A stretch of DNA of 64,000 nt from Eledone cirrhosa (taxonomy: Eukaryota): positions 12,958,001 through 13,022,000 of the forward strand of contig OZ024748.1 in the NCBI GenBank assembly GCA_964016885.1. Reading direction: 5' to 3'. The notes beneath the pieces are model-generated. The model saw nothing but the letters and a program-made list of their open reading frames with translations. It was not told the DNA's origin and searched no databases. Positions within the stretch are counted from its first letter, which is position 1. The number at the start of each line of letters is the position of its first letter. The position numbers and the translations under genes were made by a program. This document shows, in pieces, positions 6,661 through 61,884 of this stretch.

Positions 6661-6929
6661 CGTTAGGGGAGCTGGTTTGGTAAATGTGTTGTTCTTTTTG
6701 TTGTTTGTGATAGAGATAGAAGCGGAGGTGGTGGTGGTGGTGGTGTGTGTGTGGGGGGGGGGAGGGTTAGTGATGATGATTGTTGAGATCATTTTGGTTA
6801 GTAGTGAATGTAGTGTTGGGGGTGACAGTGGTTATGGAGGCTTTCCAGGTGAAACTCTTAACAGAACAGTGGTTTCACTACTACCGGTCACCATATTCCA
6901 ATTTATCAATATTATTATTATTATTAATG

Positions 6930-7365
6930 TAGGGCGGTGGATTGGCAATATCGGTAGAGCGTCGGACGCCATGCTTTGCAGCATAGAGTTACGGCCCCTT
7001 GATCTGAGTTCAAATCCCACCGAGGTTAACTTTGCCTTTCATCCTTACGGGGTCGATAAAATAAAATACCAGTAACGAACTGGGGTCGATTTAATCGACT
7101 TTCCCCTCCCTCTAAATTACTGGCCTTGTGCCTATAATAGAAATCATTATTATTATTATTATTATTATTGTAGGGCGGTGGATTGGCAGTATCGGTAGAG
7201 CGTCGGACAACATGCTTTGCTGTATAGATTTATGGTCCTTTACGGTTTGAGTTCAAATTCCGCCGATGTTAACTTTGCCTTTCATCCTTACAGGGTCGAT
7301 AAAATAAGTACCAGTAATGAACTGGGTAATTGCTGGCCTTGTGCCTAAAGTAGAAACAATTATTA
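6930..7365 (+). mobile_element. Two tandem tRNA-derived SINEs (Meta/MESC-like core) with (ATT)n tails
   Basis: A box TGGCAGTATCGG, B box GAGTTCAAAT, core ctttgcctttcatccttacggggtcgataaaata..taccag, tail gctggccttgtgcc..tagaaa(att)n. Confidence 0.9.
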
Positions 7366-7639
7366 TTATTATTATCGTAGTAATATAGTTGTTATTGTAG
7401 TAGTAGTAGTAGTAGTAGTAGTTGTTGTTTGGTGTAGTAGAAACAAGAAAGACTATTGCAATTAAGTTGTTAGTATTTAGCTCTCATTAAGTAACTCTAT
7501 AACTAAAGCCGTTCCATCCATGGATATCCAGTTTGTTTATCGACACAATGTATACATAATCTCCTTACCCACCGGCTACCTGTTTTGTATGGCAGTAGAA
7601 TGTGATTTTATGGAGATTTAATTTTCAAATTTTTAGAAT

Positions 7640-7965
7640 GTCATGGTGAAAGGCAAAGCTCATTTCGGCAGGATTTCAACTCATAACGTAAAGGGTGGTA
7701 ACATAGTGCCTGACACTCTATCGGTACTGCAAATCCACTTCCCTTTGTTTCTGATTTTGGCACAAGGCCAACAATTTTGGTGGGAGGGAAAGTCATTTAA
7801 ATCGACCGTAGTGTATTACTAGTACTTTATTTTATCGATATCATAGGGATGAAAGGCAAAGTTGACCTCGGCAGGAAATGAACTCAGACTGCAAAGGGCC
7901 GTAACTCTATGCTGGAAAGCATGGCGTCCGACCTTCTACCGATACTGCCAATCGACCGCCATTCG
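7640..7965 (-). mobile_element. SINE 5' fragment plus full SINE copy (same family)
   Basis: Reverse complement of the same head, core and tail (ggcacaaggcc...gatgaaaggcaaagttgacctcggc...ccgatactgccaat). Confidence 0.85.
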
Positions 7966-8295
7966 GGTATATAATAATAATAATAACTCAACAACAAAAC
8001 TAATATCAACAAAAGACGAAAAATACCAACAACAACTGCAACAAGGACAACAATAACATATTTATTATATATAATAACAATACAATTACAATCAACGTAA
8101 GAAATATACAAAGACTATCAACAAGGAATCTTATAAACAAGAAACCTACTGCATTGTCTTTGGCTGAAGAAATTTGTAAATAGGGAGGAAAATTACATAG
8201 ACGTTAGTTGTACAATTAATGTTGTATCTTGAATATAATAGTTACGGCGGTTTGTTTATAACTCACAAAGAAAAGGCTTATATATACATGGATTG

Positions 8296-9761: not shown

Positions 9762-10276
9762 CGCGTGTGTACGTGCCTATGTGTATGTCTGTTGGTATGT
9801 ATACGTATGTATGATTGCGTGTTAATGTGTGTGTGTTTGCGTGCGTGCAAACTGAACAAAACGCCAATTAGAAGTTTATTACTTTCTTTATTCATTTATT
9901 TATGATTTTCTAATGTTTCTGAGTCAACGCAACTTTCACTTTCAAATAATATATATACTCATATATACAAATGACTGAATGGATTGTTGTTGTATTGAAC
10001 GATGTGCATTCAGTCGTTGAAACAACGTAACTGCCCCCTTATAGAACAATATTATAAGAAGCTGAGTTTTGTTGGTAAAATTATAAACCTTACCTATACG
10101 AGAATGGAAAATAGAATCTTTAAAACAACGAATACTTCAGAGACGCTATATATTATATATATTTTAGATAAATGATCATTAGCATATTTAGTCCAGACTA
10201 AACTTCTCTTAGGCTAAACAGTATTACGGAAACTGTTAATTAAAGGTTTACTCTTTTACCTGTTCCAGCCATCCGG

Positions 10277-10390
10277 GTTACAGTACCGAGGTTTCCCAAG
10301 CGGTCACCCATCTAATTACTAACTAGGTTCGACGTTGCTTAACTCCGGTGATGGGACGAGAACCGATGTTTTCAGCGTGATATGGCGTAC
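10277..10390 (-). pseudogene. 5S rRNA pseudogene
   Basis: Minus strand gtacgccatatcacgctgaaaacatcggttctcgtcccatcaccggagttaagcaacgtcgaacctagttagtaattagatgggtgaccgcttgggaaacctcggtactgtaac matches invertebrate 5S rRNA (box A agttaagc, box C gatgggtgaccg) with scattered substitutions; single dispersed copy. Confidence 0.9.
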
Positions 10391-10580
10391 ATGAAATAAT
10401 ATGCATATAAAATATCTATATTTAAACTAACATATATTTAAAATATATCCTGATAATATATTCTTCTTCCCGTTCTCCTTTCTTCTTTCTCTTTTGTTTG
10501 TCTACAGAAAACTTCAAAACGTACCACAGCTGGGGCTTTTCTCACTGTACTACCACTTGTTTTACAATATTTACCTAAAC

Positions 10581-10631: not shown

Positions 10632-11210
10632 ATATCTCTTTCTTAGAGCTATTTTGTTGTAAGAGACTATTTTGAGTTCCTAACTCAATATATACATTTA
10701 ATATATTCGGCTCCGTTAATTTGTTGAGCTATTTCAAATGTCGAGTAAACCTGGCTGCTATTTTTAGTGATGTGGGTTTGTGAGACTCGCTAGGATGACA
10801 TCTGCGCTGTTTTATATTTTATATATAGCATACATACATGTGTCTAGGATACTAATTCATCACCCACTGATGAGCTTGGAATAGTATTTCTATTCACAAT
10901 TAACTTTGCGAAACAACAAGTTGTCTGGGTGATTGGTAGTTACCACATTTCCGGTTTGTATTTATTTTATTAATTTTTTCTTAAATTGAGACAAGCGAAC
11001 CCAATTGTCTATAGTTAGCATTCTTTTCACCTTAGCGAATCAGGTCCCTTACGATTTGAACACATATATCCATATATCTGTGTTCGTTTTTCTTTTCTTT
11101 TATATTATAATATACGGCTCGGAAATATCTCTTTCTTATTTGTTATCTATTTCTATTTTTGTTGCAAGAGACTATTTTGAGTTCCTAACTCAATATATAC
11201 ATTTAATATA
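10632..11210 (+). mobile_element. Retrozyme/PLE-like non-coding element with terminal direct repeat and internal HHR
   Basis: Direct repeat aagagactattttgagttcctaactcaatatatacatttaatatat at 10661 and 11166 (period 505); HHR between the repeats; ends in a TA/CA microsatellite. Confidence 0.7.
10859..10933 (+). ncRNA. Type I hammerhead ribozyme
   Basis: Stem I AUCACCCA(10859-66)/UGGGUGAU(10926-33); CUGAUGA 10867-73; stem II GC/GC enclosing hairpin gaatag/ctattc; GAAA 10910-13; stem III ACAAC-AA-GUUGU; GUC with predicted cleavage after C10925. Confidence 0.85.
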
Positions 11211-15071: not shown

Positions 15072-15216
15072 GGAGGTGAGTATATATATATATATATATA
15101 TGTAGGAGGTGAGTTTTATTGTAGTACAATAAAGCAATGCAGATATCGGATAAGTAGCACTCTACAGTTTGTAGGACTGGAGTATAAATAATATATAAGA
15201 TTAAAAGAGTTCCATG

Positions 15217-15287
15217 TATTTTATTATGCGCATTTCAAAAACAAATATCATCATGCAATAACATTTGCGTTTTCGTCAGATAAAATA
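15217..15287 (-). ncRNA. Type I hammerhead ribozyme (family B)
   Basis: Minus strand UAUUUUAU-CUGACGA-long stem II-GAAA with palindromic stem III AUGCGCAU, then A and AUAAAAUA. Confidence 0.8.
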
Positions 15288-15355
15288 GGGAGACATATGT
15301 TGATTTAAAACTGCACTATTCACGAGTGTGTTTTAACCTTCATATCATGTCTCCC

Positions 15356-15426
15356 TATTTTATCTGACGAAAACGCAAATGTTATTGCATGATGATATTT
15401 GTTTTTGAAATGCGTATAATAAAATA
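15356..15426 (+). ncRNA. Type I hammerhead ribozyme (family B)
   Basis: Stem I tattttat/ataaaata; CUGACGA 15364-70; stem II gcaaatgttatt/gatgatatttgt; GAAA 15407-10; stem III AUGCGUAU; AUA site with predicted cleavage after A15418. Confidence 0.8.
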
Positions 15427-15454
15427 CATGGAACTCTTTTAACCATCTTTTGAT

Positions 15455-15877
<423 letters not shown>

Positions 15878-15916
15878 CTGATATATATATATATATATAC
15901 ATATATATATCAGATA

Positions 15917-16110
15917 GGGTGTGGTAAAATACCAAGTGGACCATAACCTCCCAGAGTACTTGATACTTGGGCTAGTAGAGTGGTTAATATGAAAAGAATC
16001 AGGACCCCGAGGGCTGAGCTCCGGCCGTTTCGATAGCTAGATCCAAACTGTTCGGATATAGCTGTCGAAACAGCCGGAGCTCACCAGACGGGGTCGTGAC
16101 TTTTTTTCAT
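15917..16110 (-). mobile_element. Family A (subfamily 2) hairpin-plus-tail element
   Basis: Tail gtgtggtaaaatacc..ggaccataac..gagtacttgatact..gtagagtgg, then inverted repeat atgaaaag..gaccccg..gagctccggccgtttcga / tcgaaacagccggagctc..cggggtc..ttttcat. Confidence 0.8.
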
Positions 16111-16113
16111 CTA

Positions 16114-16190
<77 letters not shown>

Positions 16191-16194
<4 letters not shown>

Positions 16195-16425
16195 GAATAA
16201 TCGAGTATCGAAAAATCGGCGCACGAGTTCACGATAAACAAAATTCGAAATGAGCGGCAGAGGGCTCAATAATTCATATAAATCAGAGCTATAACTATCG
16301 TTAAAATACCGTCACACATAGAACATGTCTACAATCAACCATACGACCGAAAAATTGCGATATGGAAGATTCGGGACACTCAGATAAAATATCAATAAAT
16401 CAATAAATGAAATGAATGTAAAAAG
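16191..16425 (+). mobile_element. Family G element
   Basis: Starts at (TA)n; the first ~105 bp are homologous to 1-103 in inverted orientation. Confidence 0.6.
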
Positions 16426-18543: not shown

Positions 18544-18592
18544 ACACACAAACACACACACACACACAGATATATATATATATAGTTCTAAT

Positions 18593-18705
18593 CTAGTTGT
18601 TGAAACGGCCAGAGCTCAGCCGTCGGGATCCTGAATTTTTTCATATTACCCACTCTACTACCGCAAGTATCGAGTACTCTGGTGCGCTATGGTCCACCTG
18701 GTATC
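18593..18705 (+). mobile_element. Family A (subfamily 2) single arm plus tail
   Basis: gaaacggccagagctcagccgtcggga..tcatattacccactctactaccgcaagtatcgagtactctggtgcgctatggtccacctgg. Confidence 0.8.
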
Positions 18706-20784: not shown

Positions 20785-21170
20785 ATGCTTTGCTGCATAT
20801 AGTTATGGCCCTTTATGATTTGAGTTCAAATCACACCAAGGTTAGCTTTGCTTTTCATCCATACGTGGTCGATAAAATAAAGTACCAGTAATGTACTGGA
20901 GTCCATTTAATCGACTTTCCACTTCCCCAGAATTGTTGACCTTGTGCCTACATCTCAAACCGTTATCATTATTGTTAGTATAGCGGTGAATTGGCAGTAT
21001 CGGTAGAGGGTTGGCCGCCATGCTTTCTAGCATAGTTACGTCCCTTTACAGTCTGAGTTCAAATCCCGCCGAGGTTAACGCTGCCTTTCATCCCTACGGG
21101 GTCGATAAAATAAAGTACCAGTAATGTACTGGTGAATTGCTGGCCTTGTGCCTAAAGTAGAAACAATTAT
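20785..21170 (+). mobile_element. Two tandem SINEs (Meta/MESC-like core)
   Basis: Same B box, core and tail as 6930-7365. Confidence 0.88.
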
Positions 21171-23760: not shown

Positions 23761-23837
23761 AATCAATAATTTTATGATTGGAAAATTGTATTTGCAATGT
23801 TTCACGTGTACTCAGTAATGATTTCTGATTGAGGGCC

Positions 23838-24025
23838 AAGGGCAAATACTTTTTTGCTGGAGTTGGAATGTCGATTAAATCGACCCCAGTACGTTACTGG
23901 TACTATATTTTATCGACTCTGTAAGGATGAAAGGCAAAGCTAACTTCGGCGGGATTTCGAACTCAGAACGCAAAGGGCCGTAACTCTATGCCGCAACGCA
24001 TGTTGTTCGGTGTTCTAACGATACT
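23838..24025 (-). mobile_element. SINE (Meta/MESC-like core)
   Basis: ctggtactatattttatcgactctgtaaggatgaaaggcaaag..cggcgggatttcgaactcaga..gggccgtaactctatgc. Confidence 0.85.
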
Positions 24026-25438: not shown

Positions 25439-25912
<474 letters not shown>

Positions 25913-25929
25913 ATATATATATATATATC

Positions 25930-26078
25930 CAAAATTAAGATAAATTAAATGAATTTAACCTAAATCAAAATTATGGGTGTCATGCCATAACGGCATGCGC
26001 CATATCACCCGGCAAATAAGCTCAAAGATTATCTCCTGTGATTATTCATGTTTATATATATGTTAATCAATTTCTAGT

Positions 26079-26138
<60 letters not shown>

Positions 26139-26516
26139 CAACTAAAAATTGATTAACATATAAATAAACATATGAAACAATCACAGGGGATAATTTTTAC
26201 AAGTGTTTAAGCACACATAGCTAGGTAGGTAACTAAATAAAGTTAACTAGAACTTCAAAAATAGATACCTTATAATATTATAAGGTATCTATTTTTGAAG
26301 TTCTAGCTATGTGTGCTTACACACTTGTAAACATTATCCCCTGTGATTGTTTCATATGTTTATTTATATGTTAATCAATTTCTAGTTGTTATAAAATGCT
26401 CGGACCTATTCATTAGAATCTTAGAGCTTATTCTACGGGTGATATGGCGCATGCCTTTCTGACATGACACCCATAATTTTGATTTAGATTAAATTCATTT
26501 TGATTTATCTTAATTT

Positions 26517-26519
<3 letters not shown>
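25930..26519. repeat. Nested inverted repeats (family D) between (TA)n tracts
   Basis: Inner palindrome 26134-26393 centred on ccttataatattataagg; outer arms 25930-26030 and 26420-26519; third copy of the inner arm at 26028-26082. Confidence 0.85.
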
Positions 26520-26588
<69 letters not shown>

Positions 26589-26642
26589 AACAAGTATGAC
26601 CCCTTCTGATGAAGGTTAACGCTTGAAATAGCAGGAAGAGGG

Positions 26643-26678
26643 TCTTAACGTTTCCGACGCTAGTCCTTCATCAGAAGA
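26643..26678 (-). ncRNA. Minimal Penelope-type hammerhead (family E)
   Basis: UCUU-CUGAUGA-A-GGAC-UAGC-GUCG-GAA-ACGU-U-AAGA; stem III is reduced to palindromic ACGU. Confidence 0.65.
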
Positions 26679-26939
26679 AAGAAAGAGAAATAAGATAGAT
26701 TGAAGGGACGAGCGGGGTGGAATTTGAAAAAAAATGTCTTTAAATAAAAATAACAGGTCCTTTCATGTTGACATCTCTTGGAAAAAGTTAGGTAAGAGTG
26801 ACACAATGACAAATGCGACCAGAGGCATGTTGCACCAGAGGCAGACTACAACAATGAAAAATACAGACAGGTTAAAGACAAACCTGAATACATACAGATT
26901 AACATTCGTCTTTAAGTATTTTTCGTTGTTGTAATATTA

Positions 26940-27527: not shown

Positions 27528-27656
27528 TATATATATATATGCAAAGGTTATATTTAATTTATTGGAATTCAGTAAACTTAAAAGTTTTATAACTGATATA
27601 AAGCACTCAACTAATAAGTGGAGTAAATATTCATTATATTAATAAATGGAAACTAT

Positions 27657-27758
27657 ATTTATAAAACCATAATTATTTTATTATATATATTTCAAGGGCA
27701 ACCAAGACAAATTTTGGTGCGCTTTCATCAGATAAAATACAAAATTAGTTTTATAAAT
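27657..27758 (-). ncRNA. Type I hammerhead ribozyme (family C), left arm of palindrome 27632-27907
   Basis: Near-exact reverse complement of 27781-27882. Confidence 0.8.
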
Positions 27759-27780
27759 GTTGACATGCGGGTATGTCAAC

Positions 27781-27882
27781 ATTTATAAAACTAATTTTGT
27801 ATTTTATCTGATGAAAGCGCACCAAAATTTGCCTTGGTTGCCCTTGAAATATATATAATAAAATAATTATGGTTTTATAAAT
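27781..27882 (+). ncRNA. Extended type I hammerhead ribozyme (family C)
   Basis: Outer stem I atttataaaacta/tggttttataaat, internal loop, inner stem I tattttat/ataaaata; CUGAUGA 27808-14; stem II aag.gca.ccaa/ttgg.tgc.ctt; GAAA 27846-49; palindromic stem III AUAUAUAU; predicted cleavage after A27857. Confidence 0.82.
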
Positions 27883-27904
27883 ATAGTTTCCATTTATTAA
27901 TATA

Positions 27905-27961
<57 letters not shown>

Positions 27962-31857: not shown

Positions 31858-32400
31858 TTCTGAGATCAAACCCCTTCGCAATTTGCTTTGCCTTTCATCA
31901 TTACGGGGCCGATAGAATCAAGTACCAGTAATGTACTAGGGTAAATTTAATCGACTTTTCCTTCCCTCTTAAATTGCAGGCGTTGTGCCTGAATCGGAAA
32001 GCCTTATTTGGCAGTATCGGTAGAGCGTCAGACACCAAGCTTTGCAGCATAGAGTTACGGCCCTTTACGATCTGAGTTCAAATCCGCCGAGTTTAACTTT
32101 GCCTTTCATCCTTACGGAGTCGATAAACTAAAGTACCAGTAATGCACTGGGATAATTGTTGGCCTTGTGCCAACAGTAGAAACAATTATTTTGGCAGTGA
32201 CGCTCTGGGGTTGATTTAATCGACTTTCCTTTCCCCCAAAATTGCTGGCCTTGTGCCTATATAAGGAACTATTACCAGGCGGTAAATTGGTAATTTGGCA
32301 GTTTTAAAACGTCGGATAAAACACGATTTGTGGTATTTCTTCCAACTCTTTGCCCTCTGAGTTCAAATCCCACCCATACCAACAATTCCTCTCATCATTT
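31858..32400 (+). mobile_element. Cluster of 3-4 SINE copies and fragments
   Basis: Repeated B box, core and gctggccttgtgcc tail. Confidence 0.85.
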
Positions 32401-32418
32401 TGAGGTTAATAAAATATA

Positions 32419-32609
32419 GTTTCTACTTTTGGCACAAGGCCAGCAAATACCCAGTGCATTACTGGTACTTTATTTTATCGACCCCCGTAAGGATGAACGG
32501 CAAAGTTAACCTCGGCGGGATTTGAACTCAGAATGGCAAGGGCCGTAACTCTATGCGTCAAAGCATGGCGTCCGACCCTCTACCGATACTGCCAATCCAC
32601 CGCCCTCTA
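32419..32609 (-). mobile_element. Young full-length SINE with 14-bp TSD, nested in an older SINE
   Basis: TSD gttaataaaatata at 32405-32418 and 32610-32623. Confidence 0.9.
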
Positions 32610-34489: not shown

Positions 34490-34990
34490 ACTTTGCCTTT
34501 CATCCTTACGGGGTCGATAAAATAAAGTACCAGTAATGCACTGGATAATTGCTGGCCTTGTGCCTAAAGTAGAAACAATTATTACTAACTTTGCCTTTCA
34601 TCCTTACGGGGTCGATAAAATAAAGTACCAGTAATGCACTGGGTAATTGCTGGCCTTGTGCCTAAAGTAGAAACAATTATTACTAACTTTGCCTTTCATC
34701 CTTACGGGGTCGATAAAATAAAGTACCAGTAATGCACTGGGTAATTGCTGGCCTTGTGCCTAAAGTAGAAACAATTATTACTAACTTTGCCTTTCATCCT
34801 TACGGGGTCGATAAAATAAAGTACCAGTAATGCACTGGAATAATTGCTGGCCTTGTGCCAAAAAGTAGAAACAATTATTGCAGGGTGGATTGGCTATATC
34901 GGTAGAGGGTCGGGTGCCATGCTTTGCAGCATAGAGTTACGGTCCCTTTCGGTCCTTTACAGTCTGAGTTCAAATCCGCCGAGGTTAACT

Positions 34991-37918: not shown

Positions 37919-38030
37919 CAACAACAACAACAACAACAACAACAACATCACTACGAATAACAACAGCAACAACAACAACATCAATCACAACCATCATCAA
38001 TACTAACATCATTATAATTACCGCTACTAT
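36870..38030. repeat. (CAC)n/(AAC)n compound minisatellite
   Basis: Recurring ccaccatcgccaccaccccacgacaaccaccatc module, then CAC and AAC runs. Confidence 0.9.
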
Positions 38031-38036
38031 CATAGC

Positions 38037-38472
38037 TGACTATAAAGGAGTGATGCTAGAGCTGTGAAATCTTGGATGCATTAATTTCAACTCTTATTAC
38101 TAACTGCATTGTTTCTTAACAGATACTATATTGAAAACTAAGCCTCAATCGGTTATTCCAAGAGAGTATCTTGGTCATATGTTGACTACGAAGGAATGAT
38201 GCTAGAGCTGTGAAATCTTGCATGCATTAATTTCAACTCTTATTACTAACTGCATTGTTTCTTAACAGAGACTATATTGAAAACTAAACCTCAATCGGTT
38301 ATTCCAAGAGAGTATCTTGGTCATATGTTGACTTCGAAGGAATGATGCTAGAGCTGTGAAATCTTGCATGCATTAATTTCAACTCTTCTTAATACTAACT
38401 ACATTGTTTCTTAACAGAGACTATTTTGAAAAATAAACCTCATTTGGTCATTCCATGAGAGTATCTTGGTCA
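38037..38472. repeat. 146-bp tandem repeat, 3 copies
   Basis: gctagagctgtgaaatcttg at 38055, 38201 and 38347. Confidence 0.92.
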
Positions 38473-40382: not shown

Positions 40383-40404
40383 GGATAAAATACTTATATA
40401 AATA

Positions 40405-40481
<77 letters not shown>

Positions 40482-40484
<3 letters not shown>

Positions 40485-40640
40485 CAAAAGATGGTTAAAT
40501 GAGTTCCATGTATTTTATTATGCGCATTTCAAAAACAAATATCATCATGCAATAACATTTGTGTTTTCATCAGATAAAATAGGAGGACATGATATGAAGG
40601 TTAAAAACACTTGTGGATAGTGCAGTTGTAAATCAATATA
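40482..40640 (-). mobile_element. Family B element, full ~160-bp monomer with HHR (40511-40581)
   Basis: CUGAUGA core, palindromic stem III AUGCGCAU, stem I tattttat/ataaaata; TA on both sides. Confidence 0.85.
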
Positions 40641-40661
40641 TATATGCATATATATATATGT

Positions 40662-40840
40662 GTGAAAAGATTCAGAACCCCGACGGCTGAGCTCCGGCCG
40701 TTTCGACAGCCAGTCCGCGACTAGCTGTCGAAACAGCCACATCGCACCCGTCGGGGTCCTGAATCTTTTCATATTACCCACTCTACTGCTCCAAGTATCG
40801 AGTACTCTGGTGGGTTATGGTCTAGCTGGTTTTTACCACA

Positions 40841-40845
<5 letters not shown>
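40662..40845 (+). mobile_element. Family A (subfamily 2) hairpin-plus-tail element
   Basis: tgaaaagattcagaaccccgacgg...ccgtcggggtcctgaatcttttca plus the conserved tail. Confidence 0.85.
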
Positions 40846-40905
<60 letters not shown>

Positions 40906-40926
40906 TTACATATATATATATATATA

Positions 40927-41001
<75 letters not shown>

Positions 41002-41054
41002 TCTCTCTCTCTATCTATCTATCTATGTCTCTCTCTCTATATATATATATAATA

Positions 41055-41195
41055 TAAGATCAAAAGATGGTTAAAAGAGTTCCAAGTATTTTATTATGCG
41101 CATTTCAAATATTTGCGTTCTCATCAGATAAAATAGGGAAACATGATATGAAGCTTAAAAAACACTTGTGAGCAGTGAAGTGTTAAATCAACATA
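41055..41195 (-). mobile_element. Family B element with stem II deletion
   Basis: Colinear with 40482-40640 but lacks about 22 bp of stem II. Confidence 0.8.
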
Positions 41196-41208
41196 TGAAA
41201 AATATATA

Positions 41209-41275
<67 letters not shown>

Positions 41276-41283
<8 letters not shown>

Positions 41284-41467
41284 ATACTTTGGGAGGGTCA
41301 TGTTGCCAATAAGAAACACACGCACCAGTTGCTTTCACTTCAATTTAATTTATTAAATATTTATAAATTTGTAAATTTATAAATATTTAATAAATTAAAT
41401 TGAAGTGAAAGCAACTGGTGCGTGTGTTTCTTATTGGCAACATAACCCTCCCAAAGTATAACAATAT
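41276..41467. repeat. 192-bp near-perfect palindrome plus short tail, between (TA)n tracts
   Basis: Arms of ~95 bp with one visible mismatch; 2-nt centre at 41371-41372. Confidence 0.92.
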
Positions 41468-48844: not shown

Positions 48845-49268
48845 TTAACCCTTTAGCATTCACATTATTTTATATATAGGATTGGCAGTACCAGTAGAGG
48901 GTCGGACGCCATGCTTTGACGCATAGAGTTACGGTCCTTGCCATTCTGAGTTCAAATCCCGCCGAGGTTAACTTTGCCTTTCATCCTTTCGGGGTCGATA
49001 AAATAAAGTACCAGTAATACACTGGGTTAATTGCTGGCCTTGTGCCAAAAGTAGAAACAATTATTTTATATATACTATTATATTTTCATGGTAAAGGTTT
49101 TACCTCGCATAATTATCTCACATAATATCGAATCTATGAGATTTTGAAAGTATTTATTTTGAGAACAATACCTTAACATCAGTTTGAGTGACCAGTTACA
49201 GTCAGTTTCAACAGAAAGAGGTAGACAATTCTGGCCGGTTTTGGCCGGTTTGAACATTAAAGGGTTAA
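48845..49268. mobile_element. piggyBac-type MITE interrupted by a SINE
   Basis: TTAA-CCCTTTA...TAAAGGG-TTAA termini. Confidence 0.75.
48879..49059 (+). mobile_element. Young SINE with 15-bp TSD
   Basis: TSD attattttatatata at 48864-48878 and 49060-49074. Confidence 0.9.
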
Positions 49269-49915: not shown

Positions 49916-50110
49916 ATAGGAAAAAGTATGACCCCGACGGCAGAGTTCAAGCCGTTTCCACGGCTATTTCTGGACAGAAATAGCCGTCGAAACGGCTTGA
50001 GCTCTGCCGTCGGGGTCATACTTTTTCCTATTTCCCACTCTACTACCCTAAGTATTGAGTACTCTGGTGCGTTATGGTCCATCTGATTCCTTACCACAAT
50101 TCCTTTGTTA
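49916..50110 (+). mobile_element. Family A hairpin-plus-tail element (most complete copy)
   Basis: 116-bp palindrome 49916-50031; right arm holds GAAA(49989-92)-ACGGC/GCCGU-C50011-GGGGUC; tail runs to (TA)n. Confidence 0.9.
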
Positions 50111-51007: not shown

Positions 51008-51151
51008 TTAGAAATGCGCAACCGGTAAAAACTTAAAAACTTAAAACCACAAATGAATACTAACCCATACAATTACTAATACTCTTTTATTCCTAATTAA
51101 ACCATTTTTCAACTGTGAACAATTTGTCAGCATTTTCTATTCCGTTTACCA

Positions 51152-51155
<4 letters not shown>
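51008..51155 (+). mobile_element. Family J end, young copy
   Basis: About 3 visible mismatches to 25765-25912. Confidence 0.85.
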
Positions 51156-51187
<32 letters not shown>

Positions 51188-52123
51188 GTATATATATGCA
51201 TATATATATATACGAATATGCATATGTAAATGTGTATACGCATATACACATTCAAGCACTTATAAATATCTATATGCACAGACACCCCCATCTCTCTCTA
51301 TATATATGTGTATATATATGTGTGTGTATGTATATATATATAGGTAGGTAGGTAGATAGAGAGAGAGAGAAAAAAAAAGAGAGAAAGAGAGAAGATTAAT
51401 GGATAGATAGTTTGATAGCTAGATAGATAGATAGGCAGTTAGATATACAGGCCTACATATATACAGACATACCTATATACATGTTTGTAAAGTGTGTGTA
51501 TATTACACTGGCAAATGTATGGGAATTTATAATTCAGCTTTCTTAATATTTATTGAATTATTCACAAATTTGGGATATCTGTGAAATGATTAGTTACAGA
51601 CCTCCTTGAGTTGTGGCATTTATTCATAACTACGTGAAGGTTGGACTCCATAAATAAAGTAAGGCGATGTACAAGGCAAGTTAACTCAAACTGATTTGAG
51701 AACTGATGAGGTGAAGATGTGTGTGTGTAAACTTGTCTTGTACATCGCCTTTATTTCTTTCTTCTTGTCACTTCTGTGCACCAACACATTTCTCCTTGAC
51801 CTCATCCTCTTTCAATCTTTTCTATATTTCATCTGCCTTTCACCAACCTTTTGGGTTGTCATTCTGTTGAGCACTGGCCGCTGGTCTCTGTCCTCTGAAG
51901 TATTCTTGCCCATCGCTGTCTTTGACAGCATTTTGTTGTTTTAACGGCTGCTCTAGCGATGAGTTTTCTCATTTCTATATGTATTATATACATATATATG
52001 GGGTGGGTAAAATTCCCGTAAAATGTCCGTGTGTGTGGAAAAGGTAAACAGAAATAACAACACAATCGGTACAGTATATGGAGCGAATATATTAGGTTAA
52101 CGCTTGAAAGAGCAGGAAAAGTG

Positions 52124-52159
52124 TCTTAATGTTTCGAACGCTAGTCCTTCATCAGAAGA
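52124..52159 (-). ncRNA. Minimal HHR (family E) in element ~52000-52395
   Basis: UCUU-CUGAUGA-A-GGAC-UAGC-GUUC-GAAACAUU-AAGA; flanks colinear with 26612-26760. Confidence 0.55.
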
Positions 52160-52395
52160 TAGAATTAGAAGTAAGATAGATTGAAGGGGCGGGCGGGGTG
52201 GAATTGGAAAAAATGTCTTTAGATAAAAATAACTGGTCCAGGAGTGAAGAACAACGCGGATGAGCGATACAGTATGTTTTATTCCAAGTATTATTAAATG
52301 TTTCATTGGTCCCGTGTGTCAAAAATCGCTATCTGTAGTGATACATTGACAATAGATTGTTACCTCCAAATACATTTTCAAAATATACAAATTTT

Positions 52396-53503: not shown

Positions 53504-53698
53504 TAACGAAGGAAGTGTGGTAAGGTACCACATGGACCATAACGCACTAGAGTAATCAATACTTAGGGTAGTAGAGTAAGTAATAGGAGAATGTTTAACC
53601 CCGACAGCAGAGCTCAAGACGTTTCGACAGCTATTTCAGACCAGAAATAGCCGTCGAAACGGCTTGAGCTCTGCCGTCGGGGTTAAACAATCTCCTAT
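53504..53698 (-). mobile_element. Family A hairpin-plus-tail element
   Basis: Tail followed by palindrome 53583-53698; (TA)n on both sides. Confidence 0.9.
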
Positions 53699-53878
53699 AT
53701 ATATATATATACATATATGTGAGGGTAGATAGTGGGATGAACGGTTGAATGGGTGCATAGATTCGATAGATGAATAGGTTGACAAAAAGTGAGAGTGGTA
53801 AAAATATAACATCTACAATGTAACACATACACACATACACCGAGGCACACAAACACACACACACACACGCATATATAT

Positions 53879-54855: not shown

Positions 54856-54860
<5 letters not shown>

Positions 54861-54992
54861 AACCAGTAAGACCCCGACGGCTGAGTTCAAGCCGTTTCGA
54901 CGGCTAATTCTGGACTCACCCACTCTACTACCCTAAGTATTGAGTACTTTGATGCGTTATGGTCCACCTGGTTCCTTATCACATTTCCTTCG

Positions 54993-54994
<2 letters not shown>
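54856..54994 (+). mobile_element. Family A element with one arm deleted
   Basis: Left arm joined directly to the tail (ctggac|tcacccactctac). Confidence 0.85.
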
Positions 54995-55065
<71 letters not shown>

Positions 55066-55605: not shown

Positions 55606-56510
55606 CATATATGTATGGCTTTTCTCTTGTTCTCAGTTTCCTTCTGAACCCACTTTTAGCTTCTGTATTTATCTATCAGTAAATCAATCAAAAGATCGAT
55701 ATATTTCTTCTGTCTCAATACCATTATTCTATATCGCACACAAGTTCCTTACAGACACACATGTCCCTCACACATACATGGTGGCTGCCAACTCGTTTTC
55801 GAGTACGGCCACTACTTTATATCCATGTAGGAGAACCCCTACCGATGCGTTGAACGAGTGTGACTTCCTAGTCCAGCCAGCGACTTGAAAACTCTGGTAC
55901 AAACACAACACTTGTGACAATTATTGACACATAGTGCTGGGCCCATGGTACCATGTGACGACAAGTGCAGAGAGATCTCCAGATATAAAGCAATGCCTGT
56001 GCCGTGAAGCTTTTATAGTGAGCAAAGGCACTGCACAAAGCCAGTCCCACTCTCTTAAACAAGATGATATTTACCAAAAAGAAGAACAAGTCAACATCAT
56101 TGGATACCATCAGGGTTGCAGGTGTTATATCAGAGTTTTCCTTCTCCTAGAATTCTGCCTTGACACATACATACATATATACATACATACACTGATATAT
56201 ACATACACACAAGGCCCCTCACACAGAGACATACATACATGCATACATACATAGATTCATAGATACACACATAGATACATTCATCTATATATACGTACAT
56301 CCATGCATATATATATATATATATACGCATACATATATACAAACATATATATGTATACATGCATGCATACACATACAAATACGAGAGTACGATAATCAAT
56401 CTACCTATTTATTTCTTACTACATATATCAATCTAGAGCGGGTAAAATTCCTGAGATCCATGTACGAGTCCTCTCCAGCGGTCTCTGTCCCTCATTATCG
56501 CCGCATCGTC

Positions 56511-56883: not shown

Positions 56884-56986
56884 AAAAATCAGTGATGCAT
56901 CTAGACTCAGTTTATTGCGTGTTACAATTGGTTCGCCGACAATTGTAACACGCAATAAACTGAGTCTAGATGCATCACTGATTTTT
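56884..56986. repeat. Perfect 47-bp-arm hairpin plus tail next to (TA)n
   Basis: aaaaatcagtgatgcatctagactcagtttattgcgtgttacaattg-gttcgccga-reverse complement. Confidence 0.92.
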
Positions 56987-58949: not shown

Positions 58950-58951
<2 letters not shown>

Positions 58952-59059
58952 ACGAAGGAAATGTGGTAATATACCAGATGGACCATAACGCACCAAAGTA
59001 CCAGAATTAGCCGTCGAAACGGCTTGAGCTCAGCCGTCGGGGTCCTACTCGTTCCTATA
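58950..59059. mobile_element. Family A element, internally deleted
   Basis: Tail end fused to the outer arm (caaagta|ccagaattagccgtcgaaacggc...ttcctat). Confidence 0.85.
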
Positions 59060-61183: not shown

Positions 61184-61499
61184 TACCCTAAGTATTGAGT
61201 ACTTTGATGCGTTATGGTCCATCTGGTTCCTTACCACAACACCTTCATTATATATATATATATATATGCAATGATATTAAATAAATGGAAACTATATTTA
61301 TAAAACCATATTTATTCTATTATATATATTTCAAAGGTACCAAAAATTACCTTTGAAATATATATAATAGAATAAATATGGTTTTATAAATATAGTTTCC
61401 ATTGATTTAATATCATTGCATATATATATATATAACGAAGGCGTTGTGGTAAGGAACCAGATGGACCATAACGCATCAAAGTACTCAATACTTAGGGTA
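61184..61499. repeat. 316-bp composite palindrome (family A tail - (TA)n - family C half HHR, then its mirror image)
   Basis: Centre aaaggta-ccaaaaat-tacctttgaaa at ~61343; arms include both families. Confidence 0.9.
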
Positions 61500-61584
61500 G
61501 TAGAGTGAGTAATAGGAGAAAGTATGACAGAAATAGCCGTCGAAACGGCTTGAGCTCTGCCGTCGGGTTCATACTTTCTCCTAT
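61433..61584 (-). mobile_element. Family A element with partly deleted arm
   Basis: Tail plus ataggagaaagtatgac|agaaatagccgtcgaaacggc...catactttctcctat. Confidence 0.85.
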
Positions 61585-61884
61585 ATATATCTATATATAT
61601 ATATATAGATACACACACATAGATACATATGTGTGTGTGTATATACACATATGTGTTCATGTGTGTGTAGTTGTATGCTTGGATGTTCAGTGGTAACCGA
61701 TATATTAGTGATGGCAGTGACTGGTCATTTAGAACCACTGGAAACCAATAGAAACCATTGGATTGTCGGAGGATTCTTGAGGAACCAGCACACCCCCAAC
61801 AGTCTGTAACCTAATTTTCAATGAGATTCTAAATTTCCAATTTCCTGTATAAGTAATTAATTTAAAAAGACGTTTATTATTCAT

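Follow-up and report, generated by a model that had tools for sequence, protein, structure and literature searches.

A hammerhead-bearing repeat of about 160 nt in Eledone cirrhosa and its likeness to the terminal repeats of Penelope-like elements

Hammerheads in Penelope-like termini and in retrozymes

According to published descriptions, insertions of Penelope-like elements (PLEs) are truncated at the 5' end and often adjoined by an inverted copy that is 5'-truncated too, with a tail of 30-40 bp and with a hammerhead ribozyme inside the pseudo-LTR (pLTR) (PMC8557442). Rotifer pLTRs measure 193-218 bp, have palindromes of 18-38 bp at their 5' end, overlap the inverted copy and also occur solo (PMC3846280). 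Most PLE hammerheads are reported to be single, dispersed and dimer-dependent, with a palindromic helix III, and some lie on opposite strands 100-700 bp apart (PMC4209133). Purified PLE protein was found in vitro to nick AT-rich DNA, to extend both target strands and to use mainly uncut RNA (PMC11167929). The Hydra clade of PLEs targets (TA)n and has an octopus member; the hammerheads tabulated for this clade cut after GUH, many of them without a G10.1-C11.1 pair (PMC8557442). Non-LTR retrozymes consist of tandem repeats and are expressed as abundant monomers, linear as well as circular, the circles being highly self-paired (PMC7229834). According to a recent preprint, a retrozyme needs two consecutive units, families range from 51 to 972 bp, their fraction of monomers lying anywhere between 0 and 1, and retrozymes derive from pLTRs; no mollusc figures among the genomes sampled (10.64898/2026.07.22.740005). 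An annotation of octopus repeats presents active Penelope-like families, and hammerheads are not mentioned in its text (PMC13282606).

The window analysed here, a stretch of 64,000 nt from contig OZ024748.1 of Eledone cirrhosa, contains a family of short repeats (family B) which we lean towards reading as the terminal repeat (pLTR, 3' end) of a (TA)n-targeting EN+ PLE, present as solo or fold-back copies. The likeness to the pLTRs of EN+ PLEs as published extends to a unit of about 160-220 bp with the hammerhead inside and a palindrome at the 5' end, to a 5'-truncated inverted copy that stands head to head and overlaps by a few nucleotides, to the AT-rich target and to the occurrence of solo copies. 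In family B the ribozyme likewise lies near the 3' end of the repeat, with its cut site 38 nt from that end, and an inverted 5'-truncated copy adjoins the 5' end at one of three family B loci and at both loci of a second family (family C). A first-pass annotation had proposed a minimal unit akin to retrozymes and separate from PLE termini; this separation is not supported, as ends, size, fold-back and target all match pLTRs. Unlike in EN+ PLEs, no ORF was seen with family B. The optional tail of 30-40 bp is usually one-armed in the pLTRs described, whereas both arms of the family B fold-back reach the same 3' end; a third family (family A) is asymmetric. Family B is undescribed in the literature that we covered on octopus hammerheads and retrozymes, octopus repeats and palindromic non-autonomous Penelope, a scope outside which lay Repbase, Dfam and most subscription papers.

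As candidate parents of family B, the (TA)n-targeting Hydra or Neptune types fit best. The 3' ends reported for the Hydra clade share with family B the insertion into (TA)n and a short self-complementary stem III, and Hydra-1_Obim has a sense hammerhead near its 3' end with 35 nt after the cut, against 38 in family B (PMC8557442, Files S1 and S2). Of 24 families in the Hydra-clade table, 10 have their cut 25-55 nt away from the 3' end, and a U precedes GAAA in 16 of the 24, as it does in families B and C (PMC8557442; offsets were counted by hand, leaving out one row with a 5'-end motif and one antisense duplicate). A preference for (TA)n together with a canonical hammerhead at the 3' end, as found in family B, is however not unique to this clade, which is itself defined by protein motifs (RT and EN motifs RWK, DKT and CxCX5C, no CCHH), and the 3' end of Hydra-1_Obim bears no resemblance to family B by eye. 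The tabulated Hydra-clade hammerheads also have a GUH triplet, not AUA, and a shorter stem II. Given the GUH triplet and the lack of sequence likeness, no clade was assigned. Two short motifs of families B and C had no match in the Naiad/Chlamys/Hydra consensus file of the Craig 2021 supplement, where line breaks could hide one.

With the PLE hammerheads of palindromic helix III, as described in PMC4209133, family B has in common the type I topology, dimer dependence, dispersed single motifs and opposite-strand pairs; it differs in its 8-bp stem I, a stem II of about 18 bp, an 8-nt palindrome and an A-U pair in place of the conserved G10.1-C11.1. An AUA triplet before the cut is not new, since it occurs naturally in the (+) hammerhead of Eggplant latent viroid; unlike family B, that motif belongs to a viroid RNA and has a stable monomeric fold (PMC1636495, as far as its account of this motif goes).

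Copies, ends and ribozyme of family B

BLAST searches of the window with 40482-40640 as query matched 15296-15455 (93%, E 1e-64), 15201-15296 (95%) and 41058-41195 (E 1e-31), and reached family C at 27.7-27.8 kb through a 17-nt match. Within the window family B comprises four arms at three loci (Table 1), with a between-locus identity of 87-93% over aligned bases; because their flanks differ, these are taken as three separate insertions. The units are non-coding, 141-163 nt long and of 28-30% GC. The copies at 40481 and 41057 lie on the same strand, 554 nt apart with unrelated DNA between them, and this neighbouring pair is the least alike (87%). The three near-full copies with matching ends against TA that had been noted before are confirmed, with limits refined as in Table 1, and dispersed monomers with an internal hammerhead are indeed what the TA-flanked loci contain. 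To call the element little more than a hammerhead nevertheless understates it: the ribozyme takes up 71 of about 162 nt, and the rest is mostly a 5' domain (about 57 nt) and a 3' tail (38 nt).

Table 1. Family B and other hammerhead-bearing or fold-back features of the window
Feature	Positions	Length	Strand	Remarks
Family B copy, candidate solo terminal repeat	40481..~40642	~162 nt	(-)	5' limit blurred by TA, ~40636-40642
Type I hammerhead of this copy	40511..40581	71 nt	(-)	core 40573-40567; stem II 40566-40531
Stem I of this hammerhead	40581-40574 with 40518-40511	8 bp	(-)	
Stem III palindrome	40527-40520		(-)	predicted cut between 40519 and 40518
3' segment downstream of the cut	40481..40518	38 nt	(-)	joined to (TA)n run; putative start side of reverse transcription
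5' domain, imperfect hairpin	40586..40642	~57 nt	(-)	inner 5 bp alone well kept in this copy
Family B full arm	15294..15456	163 nt	(+)	hammerhead 15356-15426; one G.U variant in stem III
Inverted 5'-truncated family B arm	15198..15296		(-)	hammerhead 15217-15287; 11-nt loss in 3' segment
Family B copy minus 22 nt of stem II	41057..41197	141 nt	(-)	hammerhead remnant 41087-41135
Family C fold-back	27627..27912	two 140-nt arms, 6-nt spacer		hammerhead cores 27808 (+), 27731 (-)
Second family C fold-back	61253..61434			limits include TA flank; ends inside stem II; 3' hammerhead half only
Family A, TA-flanked fold-backs	727-915, 15910-16105, 18585-18700, 40663-40845, 49916-50110			
Family A, TA-flanked fold-backs, further loci	53505-53700, 54860-54995, 58950-59058, 61435-61585			
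Lone complete type I hammerheads	10859-10933 (core 10867); 19145		(+); (-)	self-complementary stem III; sequence unrelated to family B
Minimal hammerhead cores, Penelope/Poseidon-end kind	26600-26680 (core 26606), 52090-52160 (core 52155)			
Minimal hammerhead cores, Penelope/Poseidon-end kind	49356, 53411, 44280		(-)	

The ends of family B within the window are precise. The 3' end is the same base in all four arms, abutting TA (in the 15294-15456 arm, an array of about 226 TA units), and lies 38 nt from the predicted cut; in the inverted arm, 11 nt shorter here, the distance is 27 nt. The 5' starts of the three full arms fall within about 6 nt. Under uniform truncation, three 5' ends within 7 nt have a probability of 0.012 over 100 nt and of 0.003 over 200 nt, so that a fixed end is needed. 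Sequence 3 nt or less away from a (TA)3+ run makes up 18% of the window, and the TA runs at the ends may have grown after insertion. The 5' hairpin, which might provide the fixed end, exceeds shuffled sequence significantly in only one of three copies (z -2.3, -0.5, -0.6), and this weighs against the pLTR reading.

Such ends had been proposed as a test, ragged ends pointing to random truncation of a longer PLE terminus and precise ends to a separate unit. The test does not discriminate, because published pLTRs are likewise fixed units of 193-218 bp and a solo pLTR has equally fixed ends (PMC3846280). The same observations bear on a further explanation, namely that family B is a non-autonomous derivative of a PLE, constant in length. 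A master copy between TA runs would be read through from a neighbouring promoter, PLE proteins would prime in trans on its 3' end, and the upstream TA run would fix the 5' junction, so that all daughters have identical ends. Three independent loci, with different flanks and 87-93% identity, have both ends in common, which uniform truncation would bring about with a probability of only 0.003-0.012; non-autonomous PLE derivatives are known in Chlamydomonas (PMC8557442), and monomers of retrozyme families in vertebrates are derived from pLTRs in the preprint (10.64898/2026.07.22.740005). We nevertheless regard this derivative as possible but doubtful, given that the rotifer data explain fixed ends equally well by a solo pLTR (PMC3846280), that family C ends at two different points, and that family A stops at one hairpin with varied junction loops. 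Since recurrent stopping points, as in family A with its different junction each time, are common in the window, they are no proof of a fixed master element. The sense strand also has neither a Pol III box A nor a box B when one mismatch to the consensus boxes is allowed, on which ground family B was rejected as a Pol III SINE.

All four arms have complete type I core boxes, an 8-bp stem I and an AUA (NUH) site. The hammerhead of about 70 nt with a palindromic stem III noted in the first-pass annotation is therefore real in its core, but not uniform: the 8-nt palindrome is perfect in three of the four arms, with a G.U variant in 15294-15456, and stem II is present in three, the 41057 copy having lost 22 nt and with them a stable stem II. 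The base pair of stem II is A-U in three arms and G.U in one, a departure from the G10.1-C11.1 pair that is typical, not universal. A strict descriptor, with thresholds set after a first scan for cores, found eight motifs in the window and none in each of 200 shuffles (local, block-wise dinucleotide). Rfam returned no hammerhead at the gathering score in the whole window, and no hammerhead model matched 40400-41300 up to E 10.

In predicted folds, stem III forms as an intermolecular 8-bp duplex only; its first pair has a probability of 0.001 in the monomer, and the double-hammerhead fold has -31.9 kcal/mol, which is 10.7 lower than two separate monomers and 1.4 short of the most stable dimer. 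Sequence and predicted fold thus support a real dimer-type type I hammerhead, which is predicted to take its active shape only in pairs and, with its full 8-bp stem I, would work in a tandem transcript. The hammerheads at 40481 and 41057 could pair in one transcript, with at most one cut, because one copy lacks stem II. Lunse and colleagues are said to have devoted a paper to dimer cleavage by PLE hammerheads. The extension of stem I is shorter in family B, where it lies beyond a pyrimidine bulge, and has 13 more pairs beyond an internal loop in family C (27773-27909, +); a loop-loop contact with stem II is possible.

A tandem origin can be weighed on the same motif. In this scenario family B would be the monomeric offspring of a non-LTR retrozyme, a tandem array elsewhere giving rise to a circle of about 150 nt that a PLE RT copies once round, starting internally. 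Family B resembles the retrozymes described in being non-coding, with a type I hammerhead, less than 50% GC and a size within 51-972 bp, and for them too monomers are common and a PLE origin has been proposed; a size at the low end of non-LTR retrozymes, as first noted, is hence not unusual (10.64898/2026.07.22.740005, for the families it lists). The hammerhead would work in a tandem transcript, and the first and last 13 nt are alike at 10 of 13 positions in two copies, a value reached by 0.3-0.5% of shuffles and expected of a once-round copy with a short overlap. This likeness was however noticed post hoc, is weaker in the third copy, where 8 of 13 positions agree and 16% of shuffles do as well, and has mismatches common to different copies, so that the overlap is inherited and not remade at each insertion. 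Family B also differs from the retrozymes described in lacking tandem units in the window, monomer release and a strongly self-paired circle: the search for multimers that had been suggested found no tandem family B unit in any of 73 tandem arrays, a single internal hammerhead cannot free a 160-nt RNA from any of the loci, and the predicted circles of all three putative units are not unusually paired (z -1.8, 0.2, 0.2). We therefore consider a retrozyme offspring quite improbable. A 146-bp tandem at 38030-38472 (three copies, 93% alike) was rejected as a family B array; it is unrelated (best BLAST E 1.4) and contains no hammerhead core.

Fold-back insertions and a possible route of insertion

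At 15.2 kb the inverted and the full arm stand head to head with an overlap of 3 nt, and both outer ends of the locus (15198-15456) are 3' ends against TA. The inverted partial copy previously placed at 15195 is accordingly a real arm, but not a separate one: it forms a single insertion with the 15294 copy. Of 88 positions compared, 1 differs between the two arms and 4 differ between one of them and the 40481 copy, as would be expected if one template served for both arms. The locus is predicted to fold as a single hairpin, the tip of which is formed by the 5' hairpin of the element, and the cDNA end at the junction is predicted to fold back with -6.3 kcal/mol. Most simply, synthesis of the cDNA would have run to the 5' end, where the strand snapped back and was elongated from the 3-nt match. 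Two points speak against this. In the literature such junctions are put down to self-priming on an antisense template (PMC3846280), and the 5' hairpin on which a snap-back would depend surpasses shuffles in one of three copies only. Owing to its spacer of more than 30 nt, the locus is missing from our catalogue of fold-backs, whose 14 rows include 6 simple-repeat artefacts.

A long inverted repeat within TA, together with two copies just 554 nt apart, could also recall spread as DNA, either as MITE-like hairpins or by duplication or recombination among TA runs, with the hammerhead as a passenger. Terminal inverted repeats are however absent at two of the three loci, homology stops at the element ends, the adjacent copies are the least alike, and the polarity, with a fixed 3' end and a truncated inverted arm, is that of a retroelement; we hold spread as DNA to be highly improbable.

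The window also holds other hammerhead-bearing or fold-back TA-flanked fragments, a setting that supports the reading as a PLE terminus. Family C has two loci, each a fold-back in AT-rich sequence, which stop at two points, about 55 nt before the core and inside stem II. The family C hammerhead is a sister of that of family B. The earlier claim that structure is kept between the two despite sequence change stands as far as pairing goes, 105 of 105 cells of the alignment being paired, with two-sided changes in 4 of 18 pairs. As evidence of covariation it is weak, because there is in effect one comparison of B with C: the consensus structure was drawn on the very alignment tested, the count of two-sided changes was reached by 80 of 500 shuffles, and no pair is changed on both sides inside family B.

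Family A, with 12 pattern matches at nine loci, has an apparent 3' hammerhead half with a GUC site in all 12; a 5' core box was found in none of the 12 within 45 nt upstream. Its arms are asymmetric, an extension of about 80 nt being present on one while the other ends earlier, and its junction loops vary between loci, which, with a single hairpin as stopping point, points to recurrent independent events. Among the minimal hammerhead cores, that at 26600 carries core boxes in inverted orientation at either end. Further hairpin elements, nearly perfect and set in AT-rich or TA sequence, occur at 41276-41467, 56884-56986, 26247-26306 and 25909-26539, the last a nest of inverted repeats; no hammerhead core was found in these four.

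For family B as a PLE terminal repeat, the following route would account for the copies. A PLE protein with RT and GIY-YIG domains, encoded elsewhere in the genome, would bind PLE RNA; a TA run would be nicked and, to judge from the flanks, cDNA would start 38 nt 3' of the hammerhead site. The scissile bond lies inside each insert, so that the template should have been uncut or rejoined RNA, which agrees with the prediction that the self-complementary stem III of the hammerhead pairs only when two copies meet, as well as with the mainly uncut template reported for purified protein (PMC11167929). Synthesis would end at the hairpin-bearing 5' end of the repeat, which may be why the copies are nearly equal in length. 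The cDNA end would then join the TA target, as the junctions of the 40481 and 41057 copies suggest, or alternatively fold on its own hairpin and be extended from the 3-nt match, giving the head-to-head arrangement at 15198-15456. Once inserted, the copies are probably dead ends, and the hammerhead would matter in a tandem parent transcript only, where two motifs can pair. It speaks against this reading that Pfam found neither RT nor GIY-YIG in 187 of the 238 unmasked window frames of at least 45 aa (51 were dropped for low complexity or X), and that for family B the window contains no longer copy, no direct pair of pLTRs and no partial tandem.

One could go further and regard family B as a self-standing mini-retroposon of about 160 nt, free of a coding element, with ends set by TA runs or by one RT trip round a circle of about 150 nt, of which the 13-nt end likeness would be the trace. 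The AUA hammerhead would cut only when two RNAs pair, dimer formation thereby deciding between cleavage and retroposition, and hairpins, above all hammerhead stem II, would set the stop and fold-back of PLE cDNA in this family as well as in A and C. We consider this combined scenario unlikely.

Implications and further repeats of the window

Family B is real and was correctly spotted; most likely it is an ordinary PLE terminus. By itself it adds little, as thousands of single PLE hammerheads per genome have already been reported. It has a modest mechanistic value in that the fold-back junction at 15.2 kb lies exactly on the element's 5' hairpin, and that families A and C fold at stem II; these points suggest a testable rule for the origin of the inverted ends of PLEs, a step left unexplained in the PLE literature as far as the sources cited above go. 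If transcribed, fold-back insertions would give rise to long double-stranded RNA. For biochemistry, families B and C offer a new predicted pair of dimer hammerheads with an AUA site and an A-U base to stem II.

The window as a whole is animal-like non-coding DNA, of which about one third is simple repeats; its microsatellite load and its dispersed 190-nt repeats appear octopus-like. Five frames gave weak Pfam matches below the cutoff, which were taken as noise with the possible exception of a C2H2 zinc finger (E 9e-4) at 55842-56012 (-), at the end of a 57-aa frame that is possibly a gene fragment. The sole Rfam match at gathering score is a single 5S rRNA gene or pseudogene at 10275-10392 (-; 67.5 bits). 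Two further short repeats, dispersed and without a detected hammerhead core, end in TA runs at 1-138 and 16156-16294 (94%) and at 25765-25928 and 51008-51171 (98%). An abundant SINE-like family of about 190 nt, which presumably resembles octopus SINEs, occurs at 6910-7370, 7750-7990, 20785-21170, 23820-24025, 31860-32600, 34490-34879 and 48880-49070, and its 3' part forms a 98-bp tandem of four copies at 34490-34879.
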